Shown in pieces: positions 8,610 to 51,315 of a stretch of 64,000 bases of DNA. This DNA is from Candidatus Nanoarchaeia archaeon (lineage in GTDB: Archaea > Nanobdellota > Nanobdellia > Woesearchaeales > UBA583). The notes beneath the pieces were generated by a model. That model searched no databases and had not been told where the DNA came from. It saw only the letters and a program-made list of their open reading frames with translations. A program made the translations under genes and the position numbers. The stretch lies in assembly GCA_050292425.1 (NCBI GenBank), contig JBNKLP010000002.1, positions 561 through 64,560 on the forward strand. Direction: 5' to 3'. Position 1 is the stretch's first letter. Each line of letters opens with the position of its first letter.

Positions 8610-10268
8610 TCAAAACCAGTCATCAAGACCCTTTTGCCTTTCTTCCTTTTCCTTCTCAAACATCTGCGCTGTCATAACAAGCTCTTCTACTTCCTCATCA
8701 CTAACTTCTCTTACTTTTATTTCTCTAGGCTTTGAATCAACCAAACTTTGTCCACTAAACTCAACTTCATCAGTAATTTGTTTTTTAATCTTAATTGCAA
8801 GACTCTCTCCAACTGCTCTTGCCAAAGTTTCAAACTCAGCTCTTTTCAGATCAATAATTTTCTTCAAACCAGCATTATATAACTTTCTTGCACGAACTCT
8901 TCCAACTCCTTTAAGGAAAATTAAAGACAACAATTCTTCCTTAATTCCACTCTTAAACCTTTGTCTTAATTTATTTAAATAATTCTTGAAAAAAAAATTC
9001 TTTCTCATTAAAACGAGCTCTTCTACACAATAAAGCAACCAATCCATAATCTCAAGCTTGTAATTAAGCTCACCTGGAGTCACTCTGTACTTATCACTTA
9101 TGTAATCTTCATGTGCTTCACTAATCCAATCATTAAGCAAATCAGACATTTTCAAAAGCTTCAAAAAATTATCATAATCCATCTCATAAGGGTCATAACC
9201 CACAATAAGTGAATCCCCAACATCTTCAATCTTTTTTACATATATCTCTTCTTCAGCTTTGCCAACATTAAACAAAGGCTTCATCTCCACAGTATTTACA
9301 ACAAAATAAATCAAAGAATAAACATCATACCTTGATATATTTCCATCTGAAAATCTTTTTATGAACTTGTCAATATGCTCCAAAAAATAATGTGCAGTAT
9401 CTGGATTCAAATAAAGTTCTGAAATTTTCTTTCCAATTTGGGTTGCCATAAAATAATCATCTTCTTGACTGACAAATCCGTAATCCTTCAAAATTCTTAA
9501 AACTCTAAATAAATTAAAATTAAGTGCCTCAAGATCCTGATATTGATGAGCATAAAGGGTATTTGCAAAAAATTCTTTAATCTCCTCTTTAGAATTAATC
9601 ATATTCATAGAAATCAGTGAAAGCATGTACATCTTCAATGTAGGTTCAACTGCAAGTTTGGAAATAATTTCTTCAGGTTTTCCAAAAACATATTTAGGTA
9701 CTACCCTCTCCAATTCATCTTCACTCTTTACATGAAGTACAGCTTTTCCAATTGTCTCTTTTCCTGGTCTTCCTGCACGTCCACTCATCTGATGAAATTC
9801 AAGAATTGGAATATCATTAAACCCACGAGAAGAATATCTTTTGTAATCCTTGATAATCACTTTATATGCAGGTAAATTTAATCCTGCAGCCAAAGTTGGA
9901 GTTGATGAAATAACTTTAATCAAGCCATCCTTAAATGCTTTTTCAATAATTCCTCTTTGCTTTCCAACAAGTCCACTATGATGAAAAGCAACTCCTTTCT
10001 CAACAATTTTTGCTAATCGTCGACACTGTTTTGTCGGAGTTCCTAAGCATTTCAAAATTTTATCAGAAAGTTCCCTTAACTCCTTCCGATTCTCAGGATT
10101 TTTAATAGCATTTGCAATATTCTCTGCAGTCTTCTCAGAACTGCTTTTGGAATTATTAAAAACTAATACTTGCTTAGCATCATCAAGAGTATGCAAAACT
10201 ACATTAACAATTCCATCTTTTGTATGAGTTTTAATCTTGCTACTCTCAATAACACAAATGTCCTCCAT
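8610..10268 (-). CDS. hel308: Hel308/Ski2-like helicase, C-terminal half only (RecA2 + winged helix + ratchet + HhH domains)
   Basis: Helicase motifs IV-VI are present: VLVFNNSKSS, AFHHSGL, SSTPTLAAGLNLPA and QMSGRAGRPG. A C-terminal HhH follows (LKGVGRVRARKLYNAGL). Motifs I/II (GKT, DEAH) are absent. Upstream is a 114-bp spacer and then a divergent gene. Confidence 0.8.
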   Translation of the reverse strand: MEDICVIESSKIKTHTKDGIVNVVLHTLDDAKQVLVFNNSKSSSEKTAENIANAIKNPENRKELRELSDKILKCLGTPTKQCRRLAKIVEKGVAFHHSGLVGKQRGIIEKAFKDGLIKVISSTPTLAAGLNLPAYKVIIKDYKRYSSRGFNDIPILEFHQMSGRAGRPGKETIGKAVLHVKSEDELERVVPKYVFGKPEEIISKLAVEPTLKMYMLSLISMNMINSKEEIKEFFANTLYAHQYQDLEALNFNLFRVLRILKDYGFVSQEDDYFMATQIGKKISELYLNPDTAHYFLEHIDKFIKRFSDGNISRYDVYSLIYFVVNTVEMKPLFNVGKAEEEIYVKKIEDVGDSLIVGYDPYEMDYDNFLKLLKMSDLLNDWISEAHEDYISDKYRVTPGELNYKLEIMDWLLYCVEELVLMRKNFFFKNYLNKLRQRFKSGIKEELLSLIFLKGVGRVRARKLYNAGLKKIIDLKRAEFETLARAVGESLAIKIKKQITDEVEFSGQSLVDSKPREIKVREVSDEEVEELVMTAQMFEKEKEERQKGLDDWF

Positions 10269-16092: not shown

Positions 16093-16407
16093 TCAATCTC
16101 TCCTTAACATTTATCCTATTTTCAATTGTCATTTTTATTTAAATTAAATCAAATAAAGTAAACCTCTATTACTTAAAACTAGAACATTTCTAAAACTCAA
16201 ACCAATTAATTAAAAATCAAGAATCGGGTAATGAAACATCAGATTTTGCAGCATAAAATAAACTAAAACAATTGCCAAGGAAAGTAACCACTTTTTTCAT
16301 TCCTGCTCTTGCAAAATCTTTTCATAAAAATTATAAGACTTACATATTTAAAAACCTATCTCAAAGTAACACCCAAATTTTATATAATCAAAAAATTAAA
16401 ACTTACT

Positions 16408-17289
16408 ATGGTAATAGTAACAACTCTAAACAATTCAGAAAAACTTGCAAAAAAAATAGCATCAAAAATAGGAGCAAAATACTCAAAAACATTCGTTCAA
16501 AGATTCCCAGACGGTGAAATTTATTTAAGATTTAAAACTGAAGTTAAAAATGAAAAAATAATTATAGTTGAATCATTTCAACCAAACTCAACTAGAACTT
16601 TGGTAAACATTATCTTTGCATCTCAAACAGCAAAATCTCTTGGAGCTAAAAAAGTAGTATTATTCTGTCCTTACCTTGCATTTATGAGGCAAGATAAAAG
16701 ATTCAAATCAGGAGAAGCTGTAAGCGCGCAGATAATGTCCAAACTTCTAAATGAAAATGTTGACAAAGTTCTTACTATAGATCCTCACTTACATCGAATT
16801 CATGCAATGAAAGAAATATTTACAATTCCTGCAAAAAACTTAACAGCAAACCACGTTATAGCTCAGTTCATCAAAAAACATTTTAAAAATGAAGTAGTAA
16901 TGGGACCGGATTGGGAATCATTTCAATGGGCAGATGACATTTCCAATGAAATTGGAGTTGAAGATACGGTACTTGAAAAAGATAGACACTCATTCAGAAA
17001 TGTTGATGTAAAAGTTACAAAAGAAATTTCCATAAAAGAAAAAAATGTAGTAATTGTAGATGACATAATCTCAACAGGAAATACAATGATAAAAGCCGCA
17101 ATTGAGGCTAAAAAAAGAGGAGCAAAAACAATAACTGCAATTGGAGTTCATGGATTATTTGTCGAGAATGCTTATCAAAAAATGAAACCATATTTTGATA
17201 ACATTTATACTGTAAACACTATTGAACATGAAACAAATGTAATAGATATAACATCAACAATCGTTGAAGAACTAGAAAAAAGAATTTAA
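16408..17289 (+). CDS. prs: ribose-phosphate pyrophosphokinase (PRPP synthetase)
   Basis: The N-terminus is MVIVTTLNNSEKLAKKIASKIG...FPDGEIYLRF. The PRPP-binding loop is VVIVDDIISTGNTM. I prefer the ATG at 16408, because the 33 extra N-terminal codons in the track have no homology. Confidence 0.9.
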   Translation: MVIVTTLNNSEKLAKKIASKIGAKYSKTFVQRFPDGEIYLRFKTEVKNEKIIIVESFQPNSTRTLVNIIFASQTAKSLGAKKVVLFCPYLAFMRQDKRFKSGEAVSAQIMSKLLNENVDKVLTIDPHLHRIHAMKEIFTIPAKNLTANHVIAQFIKKHFKNEVVMGPDWESFQWADDISNEIGVEDTVLEKDRHSFRNVDVKVTKEISIKEKNVVIVDDIISTGNTMIKAAIEAKKRGAKTITAIGVHGLFVENAYQKMKPYFDNIYTVNTIEHETNVIDITSTIVEELEKRI

Positions 17290-17292
17290 GAT

Positions 17293-17877
17293 TCACAATC
17301 CATTATATCTTCTTGCATGAGTATTAAAATGAAGTGCAACAACCCTTAAATTATATTCTTTATATCTTGAATTGAGCTGAGCCTGCATAGCTGGAATTAC
17401 TATCAAAACAAAAAAGAAAAAAGGAATTCCATAATAAATTTCAAATACTAAAAAAGTAAAAGCCAGAAACCCTGGAAACATTGAATAATACCAAACTTTC
17501 TCATTTGTAACAGTAATTTTAGCATAAAACTCACAAAATCTATACAAATACTCAAGAATAAGTATAATTATAAATATCCATCCTAACTTCTCAAATAATG
17601 TAAAAAACATCCCTCCTTCATAAAAAAGTAAATTATACATAAAAAAGAAAAACCCCCAAAAAGCTGGCAAAATAAACAAAACAAAAATTCCACTAAGAGA
17701 ATTAGGACTATTATTTTCATCAATTCTCTCAAAATCCTTAGTTGTTGAATAAACCCAATGAATCAAATATAATCCTAAAGTAAAAACCATAACAAGCAAA
17801 ACTCTATCAGGGCTTTTGAAATGAAAATTTTCATAAAAATTTGCCAAACTTGAGTTCACAAACTTCTGCGTAATCAT
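17293..17877 (-). CDS. polytopic membrane protein (DUF4234-like)
   Basis: TLGLYLIHWVYSTTKDF resembles the DUF4234 signature, and there are several aromatic-rich TM helices. I prefer the ATG at 17877. Confidence 0.45.
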   Translation of the reverse strand: MITQKFVNSSLANFYENFHFKSPDRVLLVMVFTLGLYLIHWVYSTTKDFERIDENNSPNSLSGIFVLFILPAFWGFFFFMYNLLFYEGGMFFTLFEKLGWIFIIILILEYLYRFCEFYAKITVTNEKVWYYSMFPGFLAFTFLVFEIYYGIPFFFFVLIVIPAMQAQLNSRYKEYNLRVVALHFNTHARRYNGL

Positions 17878-17938
17878 AACTAGAAACAAAAATCAAAATA
17901 TATAAATTTAATTCACCAATCTACAGTCAAAGCACAAA

Positions 17939-18460
17939 CTACTCTTTAAGCTTTAATTTGATTTTTTCAATCAAATCATCTATTCTATTTGAATTATCAA
18001 TAGCAAAAACTTTTCCTTTTGAACTCTTTGATTTTTCTTCTTCACTTAAAATTTCATAGCCTTCTTCTTCAGCTTCATAAAAACACAAATTAAAACTTTC
18101 CACCTCCAAATTATCCTTTATTTTTTGTTCATTATAATTTCTCTTCAAATATTCTTTTTTTAATTCCTTTAAATCTCTATTAATAACAAAAAGAAAATCA
18201 ATTAAATCTGGATTCAGAAAATGAGCAAAATGTCCTTCAAAAATCGTATTTTTATATTTTCCATCTGCAATATCTCTATTTACTTTTGCAACAAGTTTGT
18301 CAATGTCAAAATCAAAAGTCTGCAACTCAGGCACCTCTTTGATTTTAAATTCTTTGGCAAGTTCATTAAGTTGAATAACACTATAATTCAACTCTTTGGC
18401 AAGATCTTTTGCGATAGTTGTCTTCCCACTTCCTACACTGCCACTAATAGCTATAATCAT
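17939..18460 (-). CDS. Fap7/AK6-like nucleoside-monophosphate kinase (P-loop)
   Basis: 173 aa starting MIIAISGSVGSGKTTIAKDLAKEL. The size and N-terminal P-loop fit archaeal Fap7/adenylate kinase isoenzyme 6. Confidence 0.65.
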   Translation of the reverse strand: MIIAISGSVGSGKTTIAKDLAKELNYSVIQLNELAKEFKIKEVPELQTFDFDIDKLVAKVNRDIADGKYKNTIFEGHFAHFLNPDLIDFLFVINRDLKELKKEYLKRNYNEQKIKDNLEVESFNLCFYEAEEEGYEILSEEEKSKSSKGKVFAIDNSNRIDDLIEKIKLKLKE

Positions 18461-19290
18461 GCTGCAAATCTAAACTTTAAACCTCCTTCAAAATTATCAT
18501 CATTTGCTGCCATTTTATTAATTCTAACAGTTTCAATAAGTTCTCTAACTCCAATTTTTCCACTAAGAAAATCAGTTTGAAAATATAAATTTATTTGACC
18601 TTGAGAAATCTCATATAATTTTTTAATAATATTTATATCATCTACTCTTTCACATACAATCCCAATATCTTTTTTAGATTTTACAACAGTTCTTACAATT
18701 CCTCTAAAAGTATCAAATAATTCATCAACTCTTCCTTCTTTATATTCAATTTTTATTTTATTTAAAGGATGGGAAAACTTAATATTATGTACCAACTCAG
18801 CAAAGTTTGGATGTTTGCCTCCAATACTACAATAATCATCCAAATATATTCTTATTTTTGTAGATCTTCTCAATTCCCCAAGTTTTTCAAATAATTTCAT
18901 TACCATTACACTATCGGTTGGAAAATCTCTTTCAGTAACTTCTAAAGCAATATTATACTTAATCATTTCCGAAATAATACTGTCTTTTTTTATAAATTCA
19001 ATAAAATTATCATCAAAAAATAACAAAGCTGGAACATTTACACTGAATTTTAAATCATTTTCTAAAATATATTCTGAATCTTTTAAATTTGAAATCAATT
19101 TAATCAATAATTTTCTAGTAAACTTTAACATTTTATTAGGATTTTTTTCTAAATTCCTAAAATAATTTTCATTATCTTTTCCATCAAATAAAATTTCAGC
19201 ACCAAATATCTCAAAAAAAAAAAAATTTCCTTTAGGAACTATTTTGTACATTGGTTGAAACTTTATTCCTCCTTGTCTTCCAAACAACAT
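18457..19290 (-). CDS. divergent EAL-domain protein (c-di-GMP phosphodiesterase-like)
   Basis: The ordered EAL-family motifs are FQPMYKI (yQPi), FEIFGAEIL (EAL position), FSVNVP (vN), ALEVTERDF (EitE), IYLDDYCSIGG (DDFGtG), NKIKIE (KiD), IVCERVDD (AEGVE) and YFQTD (QG). I prefer the ATG at 19290, which has a TATA-like TTTTTATAAA about 30 nt upstream. Confidence 0.55.
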   Translation of the reverse strand: MLFGRQGGIKFQPMYKIVPKGNFFFFEIFGAEILFDGKDNENYFRNLEKNPNKMLKFTRKLLIKLISNLKDSEYILENDLKFSVNVPALLFFDDNFIEFIKKDSIISEMIKYNIALEVTERDFPTDSVMVMKLFEKLGELRRSTKIRIYLDDYCSIGGKHPNFAELVHNIKFSHPLNKIKIEYKEGRVDELFDTFRGIVRTVVKSKKDIGIVCERVDDINIIKKLYEISQGQINLYFQTDFLSGKIGVRELIETVRINKMAANDDNFEGGLKFRFAA

Positions 19291-19326
19291 AATAATTCTA
19301 AACTTCAAAAGTTTATAAAAATATCT

Positions 19327-20094
19327 CTACTCTACCCAGTCAGTAGATTCTCCTTGAAAACTCACTAAAAGTTCAGGAAACTTCTCTACAGCCAAGAGTG
19401 CCTCTTTTATTTGTCTATAAACATTTTCATAAAAATTAGTATTTTCTGATATATGTGAAAGCACAATTCTTTGAGAATTATTTACAACTTCCTGCAACAC
19501 TTCTAAACTTTGATGAACTCCTAAATGTCCACTACTTGACATTAATCTATTTAAATAATTCCAATTCATATCCTTACAATTTTTATTTACATAATCTTTG
19601 CAATAATTGGCTTCAAAATAAATAATATCCAAATCTTTCAAAATATGTTTAATCTCATTGCTAACTTCACCTAAATCAGTAAATACTCCTAACTTTTTCC
19701 CCTTATTTTCAAATACAAAACTAAGAGCTTCTTTTGCATCATGACTTTTCTCAACTGCAAACACTCTTAAATCTCCTAAAGAAAAATTGTCATGATGTTT
19801 TACTATTTTGATATCAACTCCTTTCAAATCTTTCTTAATCATTTCATATGTTCCTTGTGACATAAAAAATTGACACCTCACATTTTTTGCAAACACTTTA
19901 AGCCCAGCAACATGATCTGCGTGCTCATGAGTAATAAAAACACCTCTAATTTCATTCACATCAACTCCTTTTTCATCCAAAATACTCTTAGTTCTAGAAA
20001 AAGTTAGACCTAAATCAACTAAAATTTTATTGTCTTCAGTTTCTACATAAAAACAATTTCCACTTGACCCCGAAGCTAACGCAAAACTACGCAT
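19327..20094 (-). CDS. metallo-beta-lactamase-fold hydrolase (YycJ/PhnP-like)
   Basis: SGSSGNCFYVE...ILVDLG and ITHEHADHVAGL (HxHxDH) are present. The 255-aa size fits. Confidence 0.75.
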   Translation of the reverse strand: MRSFALASGSSGNCFYVETEDNKILVDLGLTFSRTKSILDEKGVDVNEIRGVFITHEHADHVAGLKVFAKNVRCQFFMSQGTYEMIKKDLKGVDIKIVKHHDNFSLGDLRVFAVEKSHDAKEALSFVFENKGKKLGVFTDLGEVSNEIKHILKDLDIIYFEANYCKDYVNKNCKDMNWNYLNRLMSSSGHLGVHQSLEVLQEVVNNSQRIVLSHISENTNFYENVYRQIKEALLAVEKFPELLVSFQGESTDWVE

Positions 20095-20098
20095 AATT

Positions 20099-20743
20099 TC
20101 ACCTCAATATGATACTCTTCATTAGATCTTGACTAACTTTATCAATATCATTATCTCCATTAATTTGAATCAAATCTCCTTTATATACATCTAATATCAC
20201 ATCTCTAACTTCATCAAAAATCTTAATTCTTTCTTCAAAAACTTTCTTTGTATCATCTTCTCTTTGAACAAGTTTTTCTCCTTCTACATCACAAACTCCT
20301 GTTTTAAGAGGTTTCTTTCCATCAATAATTGTATTATAAAGTCTATGGCATTTAGGACAATAGTACCTTGAAGTGATTCTTTTCAAAAGATGCTTTTCAT
20401 TAACTTTTAGATAAACTAGTTCAATTTCATAATTATGTCTCATCAAAAATCCGTAAAGCCAATAAGCTTGATTTAAAGTTCTTGGAAGACCATCAATAAT
20501 AACCTGCCTTTCTGACTTGAAATTTTTCATAAAAAGATTAAATATATCACCATCATCAAGTAAAATTCCTCTCTTTACTTTCTCATAAATCTCACTCCCT
20601 TTTTTCATCTCTTTCTTAATCATATCAGACATAACATATCTCTTAAAACCGGTATTCCTTTCTAATACCTCTCCTTGTGTTCCTTTTCCTGAACCTGGTG
20701 CTCCAACCATAATAACCCCAAGCTTTACCTTATCCTGTACCAT
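20099..20743 (-). CDS. adk: adenylate kinase (bacterial-type, zinc-lid)
   Basis: The P-loop is GAPGSGKGTQG. The LID region CPKCHRLYN...CDVEG carries Cys ligands. The 214-aa size fits. Confidence 0.85.
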   Translation of the reverse strand: MVQDKVKLGVIMVGAPGSGKGTQGEVLERNTGFKRYVMSDMIKKEMKKGSEIYEKVKRGILLDDGDIFNLFMKNFKSERQVIIDGLPRTLNQAYWLYGFLMRHNYEIELVYLKVNEKHLLKRITSRYYCPKCHRLYNTIIDGKKPLKTGVCDVEGEKLVQREDDTKKVFEERIKIFDEVRDVILDVYKGDLIQINGDNDIDKVSQDLMKSIILR

Positions 20744-20901: not shown

Positions 20902-22413
20902 TTATGCAAAAATACCACTTTTTTCAAATGATTTAGGTTCAGTTCCACATAATCTGTAATATTGTTCTTTTGTTAAAATATCAACATACTGTACTGTATT
21001 AGAACTATAATCAACGGTATCTGCAACAAGATAGGTGCCTAGAACTGCTGCTGATGTTTTTTCAAAAATTCTTATCTTTTTCCAGTCAGTATCAGTTAAT
21101 TGTTTTCCAGAATCTAAAATTGCAGAAATCTCTTCTCCTTCTTTTTTTAACGTTTGAAGAGCTTTCAAATCATTACCAGTTTTTACTTTAGTCAAATCAC
21201 TAATAATAACAAACGTATCATCAAGTAGTTTTTTTGATTCTTCTGTATTTTTTATTAAACTATCCAAATCATCAATTTTTGTCACACCTCTTGTCTCTAA
21301 TTTTTGGGCATAGATTAAAACTTTTTTAGATAAATCATTATTAGTTTTACTTAATGCTTCTCCCGTTTTTCTTAGACTTTCAACAGTTCCATCAAAAATT
21401 CTTGCTGCTTTCTTTGCTTTTCCTGTAAACTCCACACCTTTACTAATTGATTTCCCTATCTTTATTACTGCTTCTATTTTCTTAGATTTTGAACTAACTG
21501 AAACTGCTCTAAAAACAGCTTTTATTGTAGTTCCGATTATACCTGCTACACTTCCAATTCCCCCAGTTAAAAGACCAACAGTTGCAACAGTAACCGTTTC
21601 AACTGCCCACTCAGCTCCAACTGTTACCATAAGAGAACCCACAGAAACACCAAGAGTTTCCCAATACGATGGAGGAAGACCATCATATCTATAAACAACA
21701 TAAAGATCCTCATCAGTATTGATTTCCTTTGAAAGCAAATCAAAATAACTCTCTCTTTCTTTATCAAGCATAAGCAAAAATGGTTTCATTGTAGAATCAG
21801 AATCTTTAACTGCTTCATCAATTTCATTCATTGCCTCTGCTAAATCTTTATAAATTTGTTCTCCATCTTCTTGAACAGCAAATTTCATACTCAAATATTC
21901 ATCATAAGTATATGTTTCACCTTTTGAATCAATTCCTTTCTTTTGAGAAAGCCACTCAATAAAACTATTTTCTCCTCTTGAATAATCATAAACATTACTA
22001 TCTTTTTTAAATTCAATCTTGCCACAAGTAAAACAAAAATTTCCTTCAGAACCAAAAGCACTCATAAAATCATATCCTCCTTCACCATATCTATACCAAC
22101 ATCTAAGTGCCTCTGTTGCAATTTCTTCAAAAACTTCTTCTTTTCCCTCAGCTTTACTTTTGACATAATCAGTCTTACATTTCATATTAAGTCCTTTTAC
22201 TAATGAATCAGCTTCTGTTAATTTTGCAACTTCTTCTGTAATCTGAACAAAACCTTCACTTTTTACAGATATAAAACTTCTACACGTTAAATCATCACCT
22301 TCACTAACAACAATTGAGGAAGCTGTTCCAAGAAACTTTGCAACTAAAAGAAAAGTTAAAAATGTCATAATAAAAGAAATTATAAACCATGTTGTATTAG
22401 CTTTCTTATTCAT
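20902..22413 (-). CDS. membrane/surface protein of unknown function (N-terminal TM, internal Gly-rich hydrophobic segment)
   Basis: 503 aa. The N-terminal anchor is WFIISFIMTFLTFLLVAKFLG. The central segment is GVSVGSLMVTVGAEWAVETVTVATVGLLTGGIGSVAGIIGTTI. Its start overlaps the upstream gene's stop by 4 nt (22410-22413). Confidence 0.6.
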   Translation of the reverse strand: MNKKANTTWFIISFIMTFLTFLLVAKFLGTASSIVVSEGDDLTCRSFISVKSEGFVQITEEVAKLTEADSLVKGLNMKCKTDYVKSKAEGKEEVFEEIATEALRCWYRYGEGGYDFMSAFGSEGNFCFTCGKIEFKKDSNVYDYSRGENSFIEWLSQKKGIDSKGETYTYDEYLSMKFAVQEDGEQIYKDLAEAMNEIDEAVKDSDSTMKPFLLMLDKERESYFDLLSKEINTDEDLYVVYRYDGLPPSYWETLGVSVGSLMVTVGAEWAVETVTVATVGLLTGGIGSVAGIIGTTIKAVFRAVSVSSKSKKIEAVIKIGKSISKGVEFTGKAKKAARIFDGTVESLRKTGEALSKTNNDLSKKVLIYAQKLETRGVTKIDDLDSLIKNTEESKKLLDDTFVIISDLTKVKTGNDLKALQTLKKEGEEISAILDSGKQLTDTDWKKIRIFEKTSAAVLGTYLVADTVDYSSNTVQYVDILTKEQYYRLCGTEPKSFEKSGIFA

Positions 22414-24002
22414 TTTGCAACCTCCAAATAAGGTATTCTACTAAATTGAACTCCAGAAATTATAATATCAAAATTTCTAAATCCATCATTATATTGGTAA
22501 TTTTCATCATAAATACCCAATCCTTTTAATAGATAAACATTTTTATCATCACTATCAAAATAACCATTCCATTTAAATTTATCTGCACTTACAATTTCCA
22601 AATTTCCTATTTTTTCTGAAAATTCCTCTCCATTAAAATAAATTTTAACATCTTGAGAATTTTCTTTTGTTAAAAAATTATCTCTAAAAGAATAAAATTC
22701 TAATGGTCCTGAAGTTACTAATGTATTACTTCGACTATTTGGATTTGATTTTGCCCCATTCACATAAAAATAAACTTCTGCATTTTCATATTTTATGTTA
22801 TTACAATCTTTTTTAGAACAACCATTTATGTTTTTATTAAATATCCAACCTGAAATATCATAAACATTATTATCTTTCTTTTCAGTATCTGTCAGTTTTG
22901 AAAAATCTACTGAACTTTTAATAAAAATATCTCCAAAATAAATTTTTTGTTTTTTGTTTTTTATATCGTCTATACTATTTTTTTCCCATTTAATTCTCAT
23001 CTCAGCATTATCAAAATTTGTATTCATAATCCCTAAAAAATAAGTTTCAACATATTCATAAAAATATTCATAGCTCAATTTATTTACAGAATTATGAGTC
23101 ATTCCTTCAAATAAATTATCACAAGCAACTTGAACATCCTTATCTAAACATTTAGGTCCAAAATCCCAAATAAAACTAATATCATATTTTTCCCCCTCAT
23201 TATTATAGTATTCTAAATAAATTTTATTATTCGTGTAACTAATTTCATTGGGATTCTCTGAATAATAATTATTCCAAAGATTCTTTATGAGTTTTTGATA
23301 AGAGCACATTGCATTTTTAACTAATATATCTGAGATTTCTCCTCCTGATAAAAATAATTGATTTGTTTCAGGTTTGTAGACTAAATAATTTCCATTTTCA
23401 TTCTCATCTACTTTTTCTAACTTATTAAATTTGACATAAAAAATGTCATAAATTTTTTTATTTTTTGCAACTCCATTTTTTGGTAATAAAACCAAACTAA
23501 AAGCTCCTGCAGTTAAATCAAGAGATTGGTCAAATCCTCCTGAACCATAAATGTTGAAAAAACTTCCTTGTTCTGTTTCATCTATTCTATAATCAACATT
23601 TTCAAATTTATAATTTGGATTTCCATTAAGAAATAAACTTGGATTTTCCTGAAATTCTTCAAAAAATTCCATAGAAAATATTTTAATACCAAATACATTT
23701 ATAACATAAAAAAAATTTTTCGACCCACCATCTTCTAAATATTGAAAGTTTTCTAAGTTAGAAATTTTCAATAATGTGAAACAATTTGTAAAATCTCCAT
23801 AATTTTCTTCAGAAAACTCAATAAAGTTAAGAATTTCTTTTGCATTTCTCTCAGCAATATCCTTATTAGAATCACTAGGTAAAAATTGAACAAATACTTG
23901 TAATATTACAAAAAGTGCCATAACAGAAATAATAATACTAATTAAACTCTCTAAAGCTAAAAATCCTTTTTTTTGACTATTAACCCTAGAATTCTTTCCC
24001 AT
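22410..24002 (-). CDS. large type-IV-pilin-like protein (class III signal peptide)
   Basis: The N-terminus is MGKNSRVNSQKKG/FLALESLISIIISVMALFVILQVF. It has a basic region, Gly, then a hydrophobic helix with Glu at +5, which is the prepilin-peptidase substrate pattern. The rest (about 490 aa) is Asn/Tyr-rich and unmatched. Confidence 0.6.
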   Translation of the reverse strand: MGKNSRVNSQKKGFLALESLISIIISVMALFVILQVFVQFLPSDSNKDIAERNAKEILNFIEFSEENYGDFTNCFTLLKISNLENFQYLEDGGSKNFFYVINVFGIKIFSMEFFEEFQENPSLFLNGNPNYKFENVDYRIDETEQGSFFNIYGSGGFDQSLDLTAGAFSLVLLPKNGVAKNKKIYDIFYVKFNKLEKVDENENGNYLVYKPETNQLFLSGGEISDILVKNAMCSYQKLIKNLWNNYYSENPNEISYTNNKIYLEYYNNEGEKYDISFIWDFGPKCLDKDVQVACDNLFEGMTHNSVNKLSYEYFYEYVETYFLGIMNTNFDNAEMRIKWEKNSIDDIKNKKQKIYFGDIFIKSSVDFSKLTDTEKKDNNVYDISGWIFNKNINGCSKKDCNNIKYENAEVYFYVNGAKSNPNSRSNTLVTSGPLEFYSFRDNFLTKENSQDVKIYFNGEEFSEKIGNLEIVSADKFKWNGYFDSDDKNVYLLKGLGIYDENYQYNDGFRNFDIIISGVQFSRIPYLEVAK

Positions 24003-24145: not shown

Positions 24146-24673
24146 TTAAAGTTTTTTTAAGTAATCCTTAACAATGGAATAAGTTTCCTGTCTCTTAGCC
24201 CCTGTTTTAGCATCATTAAGAATTAAAACACTATTTGCATTAATAGCCTTAACAAAATATTCCTCTCCTTTAATAAGCAATTTGTCTCCTTTTTGAATAT
24301 TAATTAAACTCAAACTCATAAAATACCTATATTTATCTTTAGAAACAAGTTGATCTCTTCCTATTAATTTTTTTGATCTCTTTTCATCACACATATATTT
24401 TTTTGAAAATATTGAAGAAATTTTATTCATAATTCCATGTGTCCTAAAATAAATATCAAATCCATTGTCTACTTCCTCAAGTTTATTAATACAATTTAAA
24501 TTTCCTAAATGTTTTTCAATTAAATTAAATATTTCTTCTTTAATTTCATCCTCATTCTTAAAATATTTAGTTCTTAATTGTATTAATAACTCATAATATT
24601 CACTAGAACTCTTTTTACAGTTACTACACATCATTTGTTCCATATCTACTTCTATTTTAAATTTATCAAACAT
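24146..24673 (-). CDS. NMD3-like protein (short archaeal form)
   Basis: CSNC...ELLIQLR, then VDNGFDIYFRTHGIMNKISSIF...RSKKLIGRDQLVSKDKYRYFMSLSL, parallels the NMD3 core (GiDfyf...S.kLig.D..s....y.tfsv). Confidence 0.5.
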   Translation of the reverse strand: MFDKFKIEVDMEQMMCSNCKKSSSEYYELLIQLRTKYFKNEDEIKEEIFNLIEKHLGNLNCINKLEEVDNGFDIYFRTHGIMNKISSIFSKKYMCDEKRSKKLIGRDQLVSKDKYRYFMSLSLINIQKGDKLLIKGEEYFVKAINANSVLILNDAKTGAKRQETYSIVKDYLKKL

Positions 24674-40214: not shown

Positions 40215-41591
40215 ATGTCATTCTATAGAAATTTATTGACAACGCTGCCAGAGGTGGCAAGTCCAGCACAAAAGCAGACTCTGAAAAAAAGAATGCTTTG
40301 GACTTTAGGAATGCTAATCTTATTCTTATTTTTGGCTTCCATACCTCTGTACGGAGTTAGTGCCTCTCAGGCAGAATACTTTAAAACACTAGAACTTCTG
40401 CTTGGTGCAAAAATAGGAATGCTTCTAACACTGGGAATTGGTCCTATTGTTACAGCATCAATTGTTTTGCAACTTCTTAAAGGTTCAGGATTACTGAAAT
40501 TTGATCTTTCAACAGAAGATGGTAAATTTTTGTATTCAGGAACTCACAAACTTATGACTTTTATCTTCATAGTTCTTGAAGCTATTGTTTATGTATCTTT
40601 TGGAGCAGTTCAGGCAAACACTCCTGATGTTGCATGGTTGGTAATGGTTCAAATGGCCTTAGGAGGATTCATTGTATTTTATATGGACGAAGTCGTGAAA
40701 AAATGGGGATTTGGATCAGGTGTTTCCCTATTTATTGCAGCAGGAATTGGGCAGGCAGTATTCTTACAACTGTTATCTCCATTCACTCAAGCAGGAGGTT
40801 TTGGTTGGGCATTTGGAGGAGATGAACCTGCTGTTGGAAAAATTTGGGCAGGACTTTATTACCTATCTGGAGGAGACCCTTCAACATTTATGACAGCAGT
40901 TTTAGGACCTATCCTTATCACAGTTGGTTTGTTTTTCTTAATTGTATTCTTTCAGTCAGTAAATGTGGAAATTCCACTTTCTTTTGGAAGAGTTAGGGGA
41001 CAGTCAATGAGGTGGCCTTTAAACTTTTTTTACTCAGGTGTAATTCCAGTAATTTTAATTTCGGCTCTTGGAGCAAACTTTAGATTATGGTCAACACTTT
41101 GGTCTAATTTAAGAGGACTTGAACCAGGAGAAGGATTCTTTGCAACTGCAATTACTTTTATTCAACCTTTATCAGGTTCAATATGGCAAAATCTTGGAAA
41201 CTTTTTTACTCTCCAAGTATGGCCTCATATCCTTTCATACACTCTTTATTTAGTTATAGGTTCATCATTATTTGCATACTTTTGGGTTCAGACTTCAGGA
41301 CTTGATTCAAAATCACAAGCAAGACAAATTATCAACTCAGGACTTCAGATTCCCGGATTCAGAAAAGATGAAAGAATTATTGAAAAGATTCTTGATAGGT
41401 ACATTGTTCCTCTTACTCTTATGGGAGGTATTGGTATTGGTCTGTTAGCTGCAACTGCAGACATTATGGGTGCACTTACATCAGGAACTGGAATCCTTCT
41501 TATGATTATGATCATATATCAATTCTATCAGCAGCTTGCAAGAGAGTCAATGGAAGACTTTAGTTTATTAAGAAAATTCATGCGTAAATAA
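40215..41591 (+). CDS. secY: preprotein translocase subunit SecY
   Basis: 458 aa, 10-TM profile, conserved position after uL15, and SecY-like segments (GIGPIVTASIVLQLL, YSGVIPVIL). Confidence 0.9.
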   Translation: MSFYRNLLTTLPEVASPAQKQTLKKRMLWTLGMLILFLFLASIPLYGVSASQAEYFKTLELLLGAKIGMLLTLGIGPIVTASIVLQLLKGSGLLKFDLSTEDGKFLYSGTHKLMTFIFIVLEAIVYVSFGAVQANTPDVAWLVMVQMALGGFIVFYMDEVVKKWGFGSGVSLFIAAGIGQAVFLQLLSPFTQAGGFGWAFGGDEPAVGKIWAGLYYLSGGDPSTFMTAVLGPILITVGLFFLIVFFQSVNVEIPLSFGRVRGQSMRWPLNFFYSGVIPVILISALGANFRLWSTLWSNLRGLEPGEGFFATAITFIQPLSGSIWQNLGNFFTLQVWPHILSYTLYLVIGSSLFAYFWVQTSGLDSKSQARQIINSGLQIPGFRKDERIIEKILDRYIVPLTLMGGIGIGLLAATADIMGALTSGTGILLMIMIIYQFYQQLARESMEDFSLLRKFMRK

Positions 41592-47493: not shown

Positions 47494-50400
47494 TTAAACT
47501 TCTGTAAGGATTTTCCTTTCATTCAAAAAATGCTTTACAAAATCCTTGTACCATTCCTTGAATTCAAAGAAAATCTTCTTTGAATCCAAATATCCATATT
47601 CATTACTAACTTTCTCAGAAATTTTATGGAACATATCATTTGCAGCAATCACTGGCTCAGCTTCAAGTATTTCATCATTTTCTATTTTTACACTAACATC
47701 AACCATGTGTTTCTTAATATTGGCACGCAAAGTAATATTGTCCCAAATTGCATCCCAGTTTCCTGCCCATTGCTTAACATTACCTCCAATTGCTTTTAAA
47801 ACATCACTCTCTCCATTAATCAAATCATCAGTAATTTCAAGCCTATCTGTTTTGGAATCATATTTGAACAAATCCTGAAATCCTCCTTCAAGTGAGGGAT
47901 CTTTCTCCCATTTCTTACGAACCTCAGTAATCTGAGTAATACGCCTCATTCTATGTAATCCATCAGATGACTTAACTGGATTTGCAACAATAATGATGTC
48001 AGTTGCCTTAAAAGATGTATTAGGAACACCAAGATCATTAACTAATCTGTCATAAACTCCATAAGGACTATCTCCATGAATCGTTCCAGCAACAACATTG
48101 GCAAGTGCTCCAACTCTCATTGCCTCATAAAGTGCAAGTGCCTCAGTACTTCTAACCTCTCCAACAATCAAACAAGAATCTCCAAGACGCAAAGTTGACC
48201 TAATTCCCATATCTGCACTAAGTCCTTCTTTAGAAATAGACAAAGCACTTCTAACACTCATAGGTTGTATATTATAACCAAGATCCGCAAGTTGCAAAGT
48301 AGGAATTTCAAGAGTATTATGTGCTAAAATATTATTAGTTACAAAATTCTCATTTTCAGGAACAGAAATATCATAAACATACTCTTCAGATTCAACTACT
48401 TTAACTTTAATAACTCTATCCCAAAATATGTCTGATTCTGAGAGTTCCTTCAAATAAGTAAGATATTGAAAATTTTTATAATTTTTCTCTAAATATTTCA
48501 CAATTTTCTTTAATTTTTTAATTCCAATATTATTTTTTCTTATAATATAATCATTCGAGTTAAAAATTTTATTATTTTTTATTGTGTTATGGATTTCTTT
48601 TCTAATATTCAAAGGCAGGGGAACAATTTCTGAATTTTCATGAGAAACTTTTCTTTGAGTCAACATACTTAAATTTTTATTTTTATAATCTTGTAAAAAT
48701 CCAATATGTTTCTCGAATAATTTGCAATTTCTAATTCCTGAAATTCTTCCATCATCAGTTCTATCTGGATAAATAGTTCCTTTTTTCGCAATTTTCTTCA
48801 CTCTAAAGATAATTCCTAAATTTAACATTAATGTTTGAATGTCTTTTAATAATTGTTCTGAAGCTAATGAAGTAATAACTTCATATTTACCTACACAACC
48901 ATCTCCACTAAAAAATCCTCTTAAAACACTATTTATTTGTTTTTGAGATAAATTAAAAATCCAATTAGGTATTTTTTTAGTATATGCATTTCCATTAAGT
49001 TCCATTAATTCTTGCATTACAAATTTCAATGTTTTTGAATTAATCATTAATGAAAATTTATCAGAATGAACTTTAACATTAACTTTAAACTTTTTTGCAA
49101 TTAACTTAACTAAATCTTGTTCTTCTTTTGAACTAACTGACATAATTATTGACTTTTCATCATAACAACCATCAGCTATCCATAAACCAACAAACTCTAA
49201 AAATTTAGAATCTAGTTCAATATTAAAAGGAATTTCTTGATAAGAATTTTTTGATAACTTAAATGATTCAATTTTTTCATTCTTAATTATCTCAATTGGA
49301 AAAGAATTTTTTTGAAACCAAGCATTATATGTACTCTTAGGGATTTTAGCTTTCTTTGCTCTTATTTTTATTTCTTCTCTGTTAAATTTCTCTAATTTAA
49401 CAAATATATTTTCTTTTTCCAAAATTTTTTTATCAATTTTAAAGAAGCTCTTACTCAAATTTTTATTAATGGTTTTGTTTGGTGTAACAATAAACGATCC
49501 TTCTTTCAAATCTTTTGTTTTAATCTCTTTGAATGGAATCTTTTCTCCAATTGTAAACAATGAATGATCTCCTGTGATTTTAATTTCTCTTCCTGTTGCG
49601 GTAACTAATTTGAAAATTGGTTTATTTACTTTATGCCTTATTAGTGAAGTTGATTTAGAATAATGTATTTTTCCAGATTTATTAATAGTTTGAACTTCAA
49701 AGTTAGGGTTTTCAACAATCTCTCTTCCATTTCTAATTTTAATCTCATTATCATTATATTCTTTAAATAGTTCTTCAAAATTAATTTTTCTTAGTTTTTT
49801 ATTTTGTTTAATTAATAATTCACAATTTCCAGTTACACTATCCTCCACAGTAATCATTCTGTACTTTCTCATGATCTCTACCATAAGTGCAGTCAAGAAA
49901 GAGGACTTACCACTACCCCTAGTTCCCGCAATAAGTATTGTTCTAGCCCCATCAATAATAAAGGAGAGTAAACCTGCAGCCTCATATGAAATCATATTAT
50001 TTTTAATAAAAAGTGGTAATGTCCATGGCTTGTCTCTGTGACGTCTGAATGAAAATCCCAAACCGTAAGGGTTAAGTGGTTTTCCAACAACTGAAACTCT
50101 GGCTCTTGCATGAGGAGTTTCAATTTCAGCATCCAAAATGGGATTTGATGCATCAAGAGGTTTTCCTGAAATCATTCTAAGACGTGATGCCCATCCTTCA
50201 ACTTCATCTTGTTCAGGAATTATATTTGTTTTGCAATCTTCAAAATCTGAATGTGTCAAAAATATTGGTGTTTTGTTTGCAGGAGCATTTATTGAAATGT
50301 CTTGTACTCTCTCATCTTCAAGTAAAGTTTCAACCAAACCAAAACCAACAGTGTATCGAATAAGAACATTCGCCAGATCTTCAACTTCTTCTTGTTTCAA

Positions 50401-51315
50401 TTTTACATTTTTAAATTCAGCAATCTCCTCAATCAAATCCATTGCAATATTATGAAAAACTTCCCTTAATCTTTGCGGATCAATAAAATCATTGGATTCT
50501 GGCTTATGTTCAGAAATAACCTCTTTTGCCAAATTCAATATTGCATACTTATCTTCACTCAAAGTAAATTCAAGAGGAGTCAGATGATACAAATTATTAG
50601 CTTCGTTGTCAAGTTCAAAAATGGTTACTTTTGCATCCTCAAGATTATATGAATCAAGTTCTCTGGCTTCAATAGGGATTCTTTTCTGGAGAGATGTGTA
50701 GATAAAATTTGGTTTTATATTTGCTTCAAAAAATTTTTTATAGATTTTCCTATCTCCGACTTTAAAACCTTCAATTTCACTTTTCACTGCTTTTATAATA
50801 CTTAATTCTTCAAGTTTTGTCAAAATATACTTAAGTGCATTTTCATATTTTGAGTCAACTTCAACGCATTCATTGTTTCTATAATTTTTCTCAAATTTAT
50901 AATCTCTATGTTTTCTTTTAATTTTAACATAAGCACCAATAGGATCAGCAGGTAAATCTTTCACAATTGTATTTTGTAAAAAAGTGTATCTGTTAAAAAA
51001 AAGTTTCATGCATTCTTCATTTTTATTCAAAATTTGTCCTGTTGTAAAAAGTTCCTTTTGTTTTGAAAGTAGATTAAAAACCTCTCCAATTTCCTTTAAT
51101 AATCTAACTTGATCAAATTCGTATTCATAGTTTTTGTTATGTACAAAAATAATTTTTGTGATTGATGGATTCTGGACAATTCTTTTCACGGTATCTCTCA
51201 TAACGATTCCATCATCTTCAATTGAGGGAAAATTTCCTTTGCCTAAATAATTGATTTTTAAAATTGATTCCACTCCATGTTTCACAACTTCAAAATCTTT
51301 ATTATCAGCAAACAT
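47494..51315 (-). CDS. type II/IV secretion-system ATPase (VirB11/GspE/FlaI/KlbA family) interrupted by an intein
   Basis: The Walker A is GTRGSGKSS and the Asp box is split as ITVED | TLEIP. The Walker B region is LRLGDSCLIVGEVRSTEA and the His box is AGTIHGDS. The extein is 765 aa, with a long N-terminal region of about 460 aa. Confidence 0.85.
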   Translation of the reverse strand: MFADNKDFEVVKHGVESILKINYLGKGNFPSIEDDGIVMRDTVKRIVQNPSITKIIFVHNKNYEYEFDQVRLLKEIGEVFNLLSKQKELFTTGQILNKNEECMKLFFNRYTFLQNTIVKDLPADPIGAYVKIKRKHRDYKFEKNYRNNECVEVDSKYENALKYILTKLEELSIIKAVKSEIEGFKVGDRKIYKKFFEANIKPNFIYTSLQKRIPIEARELDSYNLEDAKVTIFELDNEANNLYHLTPLEFTLSEDKYAILNLAKEVISEHKPESNDFIDPQRLREVFHNIAMDLIEEIAEFKNVKLKQEEVEDLANVLIRYTVGFGLVETLLEDERVQDISINAPANKTPIFLTHSDFEDCKTNIIPEQDEVEGWASRLRMISGKPLDASNPILDAEIETPHARARVSVVGKPLNPYGLGFSFRRHRDKPWTLPLFIKNNMISYEAAGLLSFIIDGARTILIAGTRGSGKSSFLTALMVEIMRKYRMITVEDSVTGNCELLIKQNKKLRKINFEELFKEYNDNEIKIRNGREIVENPNFEVQTINKSGKIHYSKSTSLIRHKVNKPIFKLVTATGREIKITGDHSLFTIGEKIPFKEIKTKDLKEGSFIVTPNKTINKNLSKSFFKIDKKILEKENIFVKLEKFNREEIKIRAKKAKIPKSTYNAWFQKNSFPIEIIKNEKIESFKLSKNSYQEIPFNIELDSKFLEFVGLWIADGCYDEKSIIMSVSSKEEQDLVKLIAKKFKVNVKVHSDKFSLMINSKTLKFVMQELMELNGNAYTKKIPNWIFNLSQKQINSVLRGFFSGDGCVGKYEVITSLASEQLLKDIQTLMLNLGIIFRVKKIAKKGTIYPDRTDDGRISGIRNCKLFEKHIGFLQDYKNKNLSMLTQRKVSHENSEIVPLPLNIRKEIHNTIKNNKIFNSNDYIIRKNNIGIKKLKKIVKYLEKNYKNFQYLTYLKELSESDIFWDRVIKVKVVESEEYVYDISVPENENFVTNNILAHNTLEIPTLQLADLGYNIQPMSVRSALSISKEGLSADMGIRSTLRLGDSCLIVGEVRSTEALALYEAMRVGALANVVAGTIHGDSPYGVYDRLVNDLGVPNTSFKATDIIIVANPVKSSDGLHRMRRITQITEVRKKWEKDPSLEGGFQDLFKYDSKTDRLEITDDLINGESDVLKAIGGNVKQWAGNWDAIWDNITLRANIKKHMVDVSVKIENDEILEAEPVIAANDMFHKISEKVSNEYGYLDSKKIFFEFKEWYKDFVKHFLNERKILTEV
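48316..49839 (-). mobile_element. intein with LAGLIDADG homing endonuclease (residues 493-1000 of the ATPase ORF)
   Basis: It starts SVTGNCELLI directly after ..ITVED and ends ..NNILAHN, followed by Thr (+1) of TLEIP. The two dodecapeptide motifs are FLEFVGLWIADGCYD and VLRGFFSGDGCV. I checked the codon boundaries against the nucleotide sequence. Confidence 0.85.

Follow-up and report, generated by a model that had tools for sequence, protein, structure and literature searches.

A stand-alone, highly divergent EAL-domain protein encoded in a Woesearchaeota genome

The stretch of DNA analysed here, a 64-kb portion of contig JBNKLP010000002.1 from a Candidatus Nanoarchaeia archaeon (hereafter the window), carries on its minus strand an open reading frame (ORF) whose product of 277 amino acids (aa), named P0001, is a stand-alone and highly divergent member of the EAL superfamily. 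The gene is native to a Woesearchaeota (DPANN) genome. Homology to EAL domains and the corresponding fold are established, despite the fact that the protein taken alone misses the curated family threshold. Its likeliest function, on balance, would be that of an active metal-dependent cyclic-dinucleotide phosphodiesterase, and this is inferred because the active-site constellation is retained. The protein is a new, rare and divergent archaeal member of a known family, and not a new kind of system. The coordinates of the gene, its motifs and its neighbours are listed in Table 1.

Homology and predicted fold

An exhaustive HMMER (phmmer) search with the 277-aa protein covered 1.84 billion representative proteins, with E-values given library-wide, and matched four of them (P0002 to P0005). 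Only P0004 (272 aa, E = 1e-7) and P0005 (230 aa, E = 1.4e-6) are true relatives. These two pass the gathering score of the Pfam EAL profile PF00563 (31.3 bits), with 66.1 and 43.5 bits, respectively, and because they also match the query significantly, its membership in the family is reached transitively. A profile made of the three sequences matched nine distinct sequences in the PDB, all of them EAL phosphodiesterases, including Bd1971 (best match, E = 2.7e-6), TBD1265, BifA, MucR, Lmo0131 and PdeL/YahA. When this subfamily profile was compared by hhalign with an alignment of Escherichia coli PdeH, PdeL and PdeK, the whole domain was spanned over 216 columns, with a probability of 93.7% and an E-value of 1.8e-7. 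As a reverse control, a hidden Markov model (HMM) built from the domains of the same three E. coli proteins matched a single one of the 295 six-frame ORFs of the window, namely the EAL-like ORF (E = 3.3e-6). Searches relying on the single sequence were less productive. No significant match to any EAL chain was obtained in the PDB, and a word-indexed search of 5.8 billion proteins retrieved only the query itself; the three-sequence profile added nothing there beyond P0001 and P0004.

The two other phmmer matches, P0002 and P0003 (E = 9e-15 and 6e-10), were rejected as relatives. They are tandem-repeat proteins of approximately 1,400 aa whose scores are inflated by summation, each repeat (NLSTV...GKIGVGTNIP...) giving only about 30 bits against residues ~200-263 of the query. 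They illustrate a caution for automated homology calls, as many weak repeat matches can sum to a strong phmmer E-value.

An AlphaFold2 model computed from the three-sequence alignment is of moderate confidence, with a predicted local distance difference test score (pLDDT) of 70.5 and a predicted template modelling score (pTM) of 0.69. It shows the beta/alpha alternation of a triosephosphate isomerase (TIM) barrel, the predicted modified barrel extending over about aa 10-263 and being followed by a C-terminal tail of low confidence (aa 264-277). The 50 best Foldseek matches of this model in the PDB are all EAL domains, with E-values down to 7e-9, about 260-280 aligned columns and template modelling (TM) scores of 0.55-0.73 overall (up to 0.64 on the query and 0.73 on the target). 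YkuI, Bd1971 and Lmo0131 (4Q6J, E about 8e-9) are among them. As modelled, the protein thus adopts the modified TIM-barrel fold of EAL domains. A model computed from the single sequence (pLDDT 55.7) was too poor to draw conclusions from; in its Foldseek list, EAL domains were interspersed with generic TIM barrels, for example KDO8PS (TM about 0.3).

A sequence-only reading of this stretch had described the product of this same ATG-initiated, 277-aa ORF as a divergent EAL-domain protein carrying eight family motifs, and had named structure prediction among the ways to verify this. All eight motifs are present in the translation in the correct order, and the description now has the concordant backing of the phmmer relatives, the profile matches in the PDB, hhalign, the reverse HMM and Foldseek.

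Promoter, host and relatives of the gene

A TTG codon at 19308 would provide a possible longer start for the EAL-like ORF. We prefer the ATG at 19290, since exactly 29 nt upstream of it, at the modal promoter position of this genome, there is a perfect TTTATAAA box. Indeed, the genome-wide positional peak of the octamer TTTATAAA lies at exactly -29; with at most one mismatch, the octamer begins exactly at -29 from the start codon in 13 genes, and between -34 and -24 in 22 of 55. Such a sharp signature implies that these elements are putative archaeal TATA-box promoters giving leaderless mRNAs. The EAL-like gene is predicted to have a promoter of its own and a leaderless or near-leaderless mRNA. 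The -29 signature is also usable for correcting start codons elsewhere, as for the downstream membrane-protein ORF, for which it points to the ATG at 17877 and not to the TTG at 17889.

The archaeal host proposed in the sequence-only reading can be specified as a member of the Woesearchaeota on the basis of the flanking markers and of the matches of ProRS. The window encodes ProRS, RtcB, a PAN-type AAA ATPase, a Hel308-type helicase with archaeal domain 4, a family B DNA polymerase, a beta-CASP nuclease, NMD3, RNase P p30, aIF2-alpha, RadA/RadB, SecY and L15, and such archaeal markers flank the EAL-like gene on both sides within a few kb. In the genome collection, the best matches of ProRS, which is encoded 2.6 kb from the EAL-like gene, share 55-78% identity with it and come mostly from metagenome-assembled genomes (MAGs) of Woesearchaeota/Nanoarchaeia. 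The GC content of the EAL-like gene (24.0%, z = -1.7) equals that of a neighbouring lineage-specific ORF, and its codon-usage distance is unremarkable (z = -0.6). Contamination or a chimeric assembly is very unlikely because the gene is internal to an archaeal contig, has native composition and carries the -29 TATA box of its host. Recent horizontal transfer, considered together with contamination, was rejected on composition and context.

The 277-aa protein, P0004 and P0005 form a subfamily that is real but extremely rare. Its three members share about 30% mutual identity, two of them are encoded on archaeal contigs, and each is a singleton cluster. By BLAST, the identity of the query to its two relatives (approximately 28-31%) is confined to the N-terminal 150 residues. 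Scans of the genome and metagenome contig collections with the subfamily profile returned no further relatives, and no member was found near ProRS in 80 related Woesearchaeota loci. Like the query, P0004 and P0005 are of similar length (230-272 aa), have a degenerate loop 6, lack the Arg of the ExLxR motif and carry a TER-x-(F/W)-P motif. Unlike the query, they have no insertion before the Lys strand, and their genomic contexts are wholly different. P0005 further shares with the query K-x-E, FER(I/V), QT and a TATA box at -29, whereas P0004 differs by keeping the canonical K-F-D, EG and QGY.

P0005, the closest relative, is archaeal too, because its gene adjoins those of Rpo7 and 5S rRNA and carries a TTTATAAA box at -29. 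It lies on a short contig (L084; 1,292 bp, 23% GC), and a TTTTTATAAACTTT element at positions -31 to -18 is common to this gene and to the EAL-like gene of the window. The contig of P0004 (L001; 53% GC) is bacterial-looking, with genes for an aldehyde dehydrogenase, a TadA-like deaminase and an S4-pseudouridine synthase.

Active site and proposed function

Active-site residues were assigned at the level of sequence positions, in a six-sequence MAFFT alignment of the query, P0004 and P0005 with E. coli PdeH, PdeL and PdeK and, for E117/E120 and the Lys strand, also by anchor residues and spacing. The roles given to them are those of the corresponding residues of RocR, TBD1265 and BlrP1; the catalytic Lys of K-x-D and the catalytic Glu of EGVE are K316 and E352 in RocR. 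Six residues (E32, N85, D151, D152, E214 and Q238) are invariant across the six sequences. E117 and E120 are conserved in the query, P0004 and P0005, are aligned by Pfam, hhalign and HMMER, and correspond to the ELTE of PdeL and PdeK.

The catalytic Lys is probably K180. HMMER aligns HPLNKIKI of the query with lPvDfiKi, placing K180 as the Lys, and PLNKIKIE fits the canonical P-V-D-F-I-K-I-D (P-x-D-x-I-K-I-D) position by position. A strand of the AlphaFold2 model at aa 174-182 covers this motif, and 34 residues separate K180 from E214, compared to 33-36 in E. coli EAL enzymes. K171 (in NIKFS) was considered as well, as its spacing from the DD pair (20) is canonical, but the PLNKIKIE fit, HMMER, the strand and the Lys-Glu spacing favour K180. 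The segment KIKIE, which the sequence-only reading had taken for the Lys strand with the D of K-x-D replaced by E, stands with either K178 or K180. Its more general proposal, that most catalytic and metal-site positions are retained, is likewise confirmed at the level of aligned positions, with E32, N85, E117/E120, D151/D152, K180, E214 and Q238 all predicted to occupy catalytic positions. That all catalytic positions are kept across three proteins at about 30% identity argues for selection on catalysis, or at least on metal-dependent ligand binding, in this subfamily.

On these grounds the protein would most likely be a Mg2+/Mn2+-dependent phosphodiesterase that opens a 3'-5' cyclic dinucleotide to linear 5'-pNpN, most plausibly cyclic di-GMP (c-di-GMP) or a related 3'3' cyclic dinucleotide. 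A first metal would be held by E32, N85, E117 and D151, and a second one by D151/D152 and E214, the latter perhaps serving as general base. The attacking water would be placed by K180, while E120 and Q238 would support the site. Expression would proceed from the gene's own TATA promoter through a leaderless mRNA spanning the EAL-like gene and the downstream Fap7 kinase gene, and the substrate could come from an external source or from a cyclase whose gene lies elsewhere in the genome.

Several observations weigh against such an activity. The protein alone reaches only 19 bits (E = 9.5e-4) with the Pfam EAL profile, below the gathering score, and its alignment spans profile positions 48-156 of 236; the Pfam search proposed in the sequence-only reading gives a partial match below threshold for the protein itself and matches above threshold for its two relatives. 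The Lys strand can be read in two registers, as MAFFT shifts it by two residues and places K178 on the Lys column. Three motifs are altered, with K-x-E in place of K-x-D, ERVD in place of EGVE and QT in place of QG. Loop 6 is degenerate, reading DDYCSIGGK (YCSIGGK after DD) instead of DDFGTGYSS, and the confidence of the AlphaFold2 model is low around it (pLDDT below 50 for aa 154-158). An insertion of 8-9 residues follows loop 6 before the Lys strand, and the DD-to-Lys spacing is 29 in the query versus 21-24 in E. coli EALs. Other EAL proteins that keep the catalytic residues but have a degenerate loop 6, for instance YkuI, were reportedly inactive in vitro. As the sequence-only reading had already remarked for GGDEF, none of the ORFs of 100 aa or more in the 64-kb window encodes a GGDEF, PilZ or HD-GYP domain. 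Loop 6, DFG(T/A)GYSS, is reported to be essential for activity, for dimerisation and for the binding of cofactor and substrate (PMC12943098), and no archaeon has ever been found to contain c-di-GMP (PMC10249747).

The Arg of ExLxR, which contacts the substrate phosphate in EAL phosphodiesterases, is also absent, being replaced by D36 in the query, Q in P0005, G in P0004 and V in E. coli PdeH. Its loss alone should not be disqualifying, because PdeH, an active phosphodiesterase, is also without it. We withhold the label of class-I EAL phosphodiesterase because loop 6 departs from the canonical motif. Given the degeneracy of loop 6, the insertion there and the lack of the ExLxR Arg, substrate preference, dimerisation and regulation probably differ from those of class-I enzymes, and basal activity may be low.

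Comparison with characterised proteins places these features in perspective. Like PdeH (YhjH) and Lmo0131 (4Q6J), the query is a single-domain protein (about 250-280 aa) with the same predicted fold and the E/N/E/D/D/K/E/Q constellation. It differs from such stand-alone phosphodiesterases in showing only about 20% identity, in having an archaeal host and in the lack of a c-di-GMP cyclase or effector in the window; their DDFGTG(Y/M)A, K-x-D, EGVE and QG are DDYCSIGGK with the insertion, K-x-E, ERVD and QT in the query. YkuI of Bacillus subtilis (2BAS/2W27) similarly keeps the catalytic and metal residues without the loop-6 motif, but it is bacterial, has an extra C-terminal PAS-like domain and shows no comparable insertion in loop 6. 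Bd1971 of Bdellovibrio (6HQ4/6HQ5/6HQ7), whose match to the subfamily profile covers the N, ExxE, DD and EGVE regions, differs by an N-terminal cyclic nucleotide monophosphate (cNMP)-binding regulatory domain and by a canonical loop 6. In the classification of EAL domains that Rao et al. reportedly put forward in 2009, class 2 is said to combine conserved catalytic residues with a degenerate loop 6. Judged from its motifs, the query resembles this class, of which YkuI is an example.

The same features could mean that the protein is catalytically silent and acts instead in protein interaction or as a receptor for cyclic dinucleotides, in the manner of FimX, LapD, YdiV or YkuI, and we give this a minor but real chance. 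The degenerate loop 6 with its insertion, given the reported requirement for this loop, the missing ExLxR Arg, the sub-threshold Pfam score and the occurrence of the receptor-type FimX and LapD, as well as YkuI, among the structural matches are all in line with it. However, the catalytic residues are retained and are invariant in three members that are about 30% identical, which is hard to explain without catalysis or metal-dependent ligand binding, and the window offers neither a partner domain nor c-di-GMP machinery. The receptor or interaction proteins FimX, LapD and YdiV have, moreover, lost metal or catalytic residues.

Alternatively, the EAL fold may have been repurposed for another phosphodiester substrate, serving nucleotide salvage in a metabolically reduced DPANN cell, in line with the module idea of the sequence-only reading. 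The neighbourhood is compatible with this, as it includes genes of nucleotide metabolism (PRPP synthetase, adk, the Fap7/AK6-type kinase and the MBL hydrolase, with Ham1 farther off), and so are residues that the subfamily has of its own and that are not in the canonical EAL consensus, i.e. TER-x-(F/W)-P and E41/F44/L47/N50. We consider it improbable: the gene string splits into separate promoter or Shine-Dalgarno units, the related loci that were looked at do not share it, the closest relative lies among unrelated genes, and Fap7 and adk are housekeeping genes. To our knowledge, no EAL domain acts on anything but cyclic dinucleotides. That the finding is an artefact, through bacterial contamination, a chimeric assembly in an archaeal bin or a chance resemblance of motifs, is scarcely credible: it could be argued from the 19 bits of the query, from the bacterial-looking contig of P0004 and from the view of Galperin & Chou, for whom matches of c-di-GMP domains in archaeal MAGs are potential contamination (preprint, 10.1101/2021.11.05.467447), but the gene lies inside contiguous sequence between archaeal markers, overlaps an archaeal-type Fap7 gene by 4 nt and has the genome's own TATA box and native GC content and codon usage, while chance is excluded by phmmer, the Pfam scores of the relatives, the profile matches in the PDB, Foldseek, hhalign and the reverse HMM.

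The sequence-only reading had regarded c-di-GMP signalling as rare or absent in archaea. This is correct as the textbook view, in which GGDEF, EAL and HD-GYP domains are essentially bacterial, but it has to be qualified by the more than 300 BLAST matches of GGDEF in archaeal MAGs, including DPANN and Asgard, reported by Braun et al. in 2021 (PMC8646023). The gene provides a clonable test case of whether any archaeon metabolises cyclic dinucleotides of the c-di-GMP type, and its product illustrates that archaeal EAL members as divergent as this one escape the standard Pfam thresholds. The significance of the gene is limited by its being a rare, orphan-like gene of an uncultivated organism, by a window that shows neither a cyclase nor an effector, and by the archaeal GGDEF matches that have already been published. 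There is a small chance, in our estimation, that the three-member subfamily as a whole consists of active cyclic-dinucleotide phosphodiesterases and is a lineage genuinely belonging to the archaea (DPANN). If so, some episymbiotic archaea would have c-di-GMP or cyclic-dinucleotide signalling of their own, or would destroy the cyclic-dinucleotide signals that their hosts or neighbours make; the targets could be lifestyle signals (c-di-GMP) or immune signals, such as the cyclic dinucleotides of cyclic-oligonucleotide-based anti-phage signalling systems (CBASS), and the changes in loop 6 would be explained by a new mode of regulation or a new specificity for the substrate.

Neighbouring genes and other features of the window

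The neighbours of the EAL-like gene are those named in the sequence-only reading: adk, a metallo-beta-lactamase (MBL)-fold hydrolase, a Fap7/AK6-like kinase overlapping by 4 nt and a membrane protein. The best PDB matches of the kinase are Pyrococcus abyssi Fap7 (4CVN, E = 2.6e-14) and human AK6/hCINAP. Its start codon overlaps the stop codon of the EAL-like gene as ATGA, and no separate TATA box precedes the kinase gene at the modal position. The two genes are probably co-transcribed and translationally coupled. The kinase, the sole gene so coupled, is by its sequence matches a homologue of a housekeeping ribosome-maturation factor, and the coupling is probably incidental. Upstream, adk has a TATA-like element near -27, and the MBL gene begins 4 nt after adk with a GAGGTGA Shine-Dalgarno sequence. 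Altogether, although the genes are tightly packed, the promoter and Shine-Dalgarno analysis divides the string into at least three units, i.e. adk-MBL, EAL-kinase and the membrane protein. The adk-MBL-EAL-Fap7 string was absent from the 80 related Woesearchaeota ProRS loci and from two distant MBL-anchored loci. The proposal that these nucleotide kinases and hydrolases constitute a module recycling dinucleotides is thus not sustained, given the split promoters, the housekeeping nature of Fap7, the absence of the string in related loci and the unrelated contexts of P0004 and P0005.

The MBL hydrolase matches the phage family phrog_392 ('metal-dependent hydrolase'; 152 bits, E = 4e-44), and its only notable PDB match is the anti-Pycsar nuclease Apyc1, over the N-terminal HxHxDH region only (E = 2.6e-6). 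The EAL-like protein itself has no PADLOC or PHROG match. A defence or phage origin was considered and rejected on this basis, the likeness of the MBL hydrolase to Apyc1 being limited to the generic HxHxDH and the matches of the kinase to the generic P-loop. The adk gene is of the bacterial long type with a zinc lid. Archaeal adk genes often adjoin secY; here secY (40215-41591, plus strand) is followed by a 116-aa ORF, and adk is not beside it. The ORF of PRPP (phosphoribosyl pyrophosphate) synthetase (16309-17289, plus strand) was listed from a TTG codon, and its homologues align from about aa 28-37; its true start is probably an internal ATG (MVIVTT..., at about nt 16408).

Table 1. Location of the EAL-like gene, its motifs, its neighbours and the features of the contig encoding P0005
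Feature	Location	Strand	Remarks
EAL-domain protein P0001	18457..19290	-	stand-alone, divergent, 277 aa; ORF, profile and fold evidence
TATA box TTTATAAA	19312..19319	-	-29 to -22 from ATG 19290; sequence verified
E32 codon (E-x-L Glu; E-I-L here)	19195..19197	-	metal ligand position; invariant column with PdeH E48, PdeL E141
N85 codon (SVNVP)	19036..19038	-	metal ligand position; invariant; aligned by Pfam, hhalign and HMMER
E117-V-T-E120 codons (E-x-x-E)	18931..18942	-	E117 metal ligand position, E120 loop-6 anchor position
D151-D152 codons (DD of DDFGTG)	18835..18840	-	metal ligand positions; invariant columns
K178-I-K180-I-E182 codons (K-x-D strand)	18745..18759	-	K180 probable catalytic Lys, K178 alternative register
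E214-R-V-D217 codons (EGVE motif)	18640..18651	-	E214 at general-base / second-metal position; invariant
Q238 codon (Q of QG; Q-T here)	18577..18579	-	invariant column
FQPMYKI	aa 11-17		EAL-like protein
FEIFGAEIL	aa 26-34		EAL-like protein
SVNVP	aa 83-87		EAL-like protein
LEVTE	aa 116-120		EAL-like protein
LDDYCSIGG	aa 150-158		EAL-like protein
KIKIE	aa 178-182		EAL-like protein
VCERVDD	aa 212-218		EAL-like protein
FQTD	aa 237-240		EAL-like protein
adk	20099-20743	-	TIGR01351 141 bits, ADK_lid 42 bits
MBL-fold hydrolase	19327-20094	-	Lactamase_B_2 78 bits
Fap7/AK6-like P-loop kinase, 173 aa	17939..18460	-	Pfam AAA_18 63 bits, NCBIfam PRK03839 92 bits
Membrane protein	17293-17889	-	probable start ATG 17877
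TTTATATA box	17899-17906	-	-29 from ATG 17877 of the membrane protein
Rpo7 (RpoE') N-terminus	L084 1-225	-	SHS2_Rpb7-N 39.4 bits versus gathering score 24.8
5S rRNA	L084 348-461	-	57 bits; between Rpo7 and the EAL-like gene
P0005 EAL-like gene	L084 558-1250	+	TTTATAAA box at -29

Farther from the EAL-like gene, two genes of the window appear to be truncated at the N-terminus. In the Hel308-like helicase (8610-10268, minus strand), Helicase_C is found from aa 90 and no match to the first RecA/DEAD domain was obtained, and the NMD3 homologue (24146-24673, minus strand) covers only positions 122-243 of the 243 of its profile. These may be split genes, genes with wrongly assigned starts or genuine reductions. 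The ORF at 47494-51315 (minus strand) encodes a 1,273-aa type II/IV secretion ATPase (FlaI/VirB11-like, T2SSE) that is interrupted by an intein with a LAGLIDADG homing endonuclease (Intein_splicing 97 bits, LAGLIDADG_3 50 bits). Directly upstream of adk, two large orphan ORFs overlap by 4 nt (20902-22413, 503 aa, and 22410-24002, 530 aa, both on the minus strand), and neither has a significant match in Pfam, PADLOC or PHROG. The start of the 530-aa protein, ...QKKG-FLALESLISIII..., resembles the class III signal peptide of type IV prepilins (G-F-x-L-x-E), and both proteins may be large pilin-like or surface proteins.

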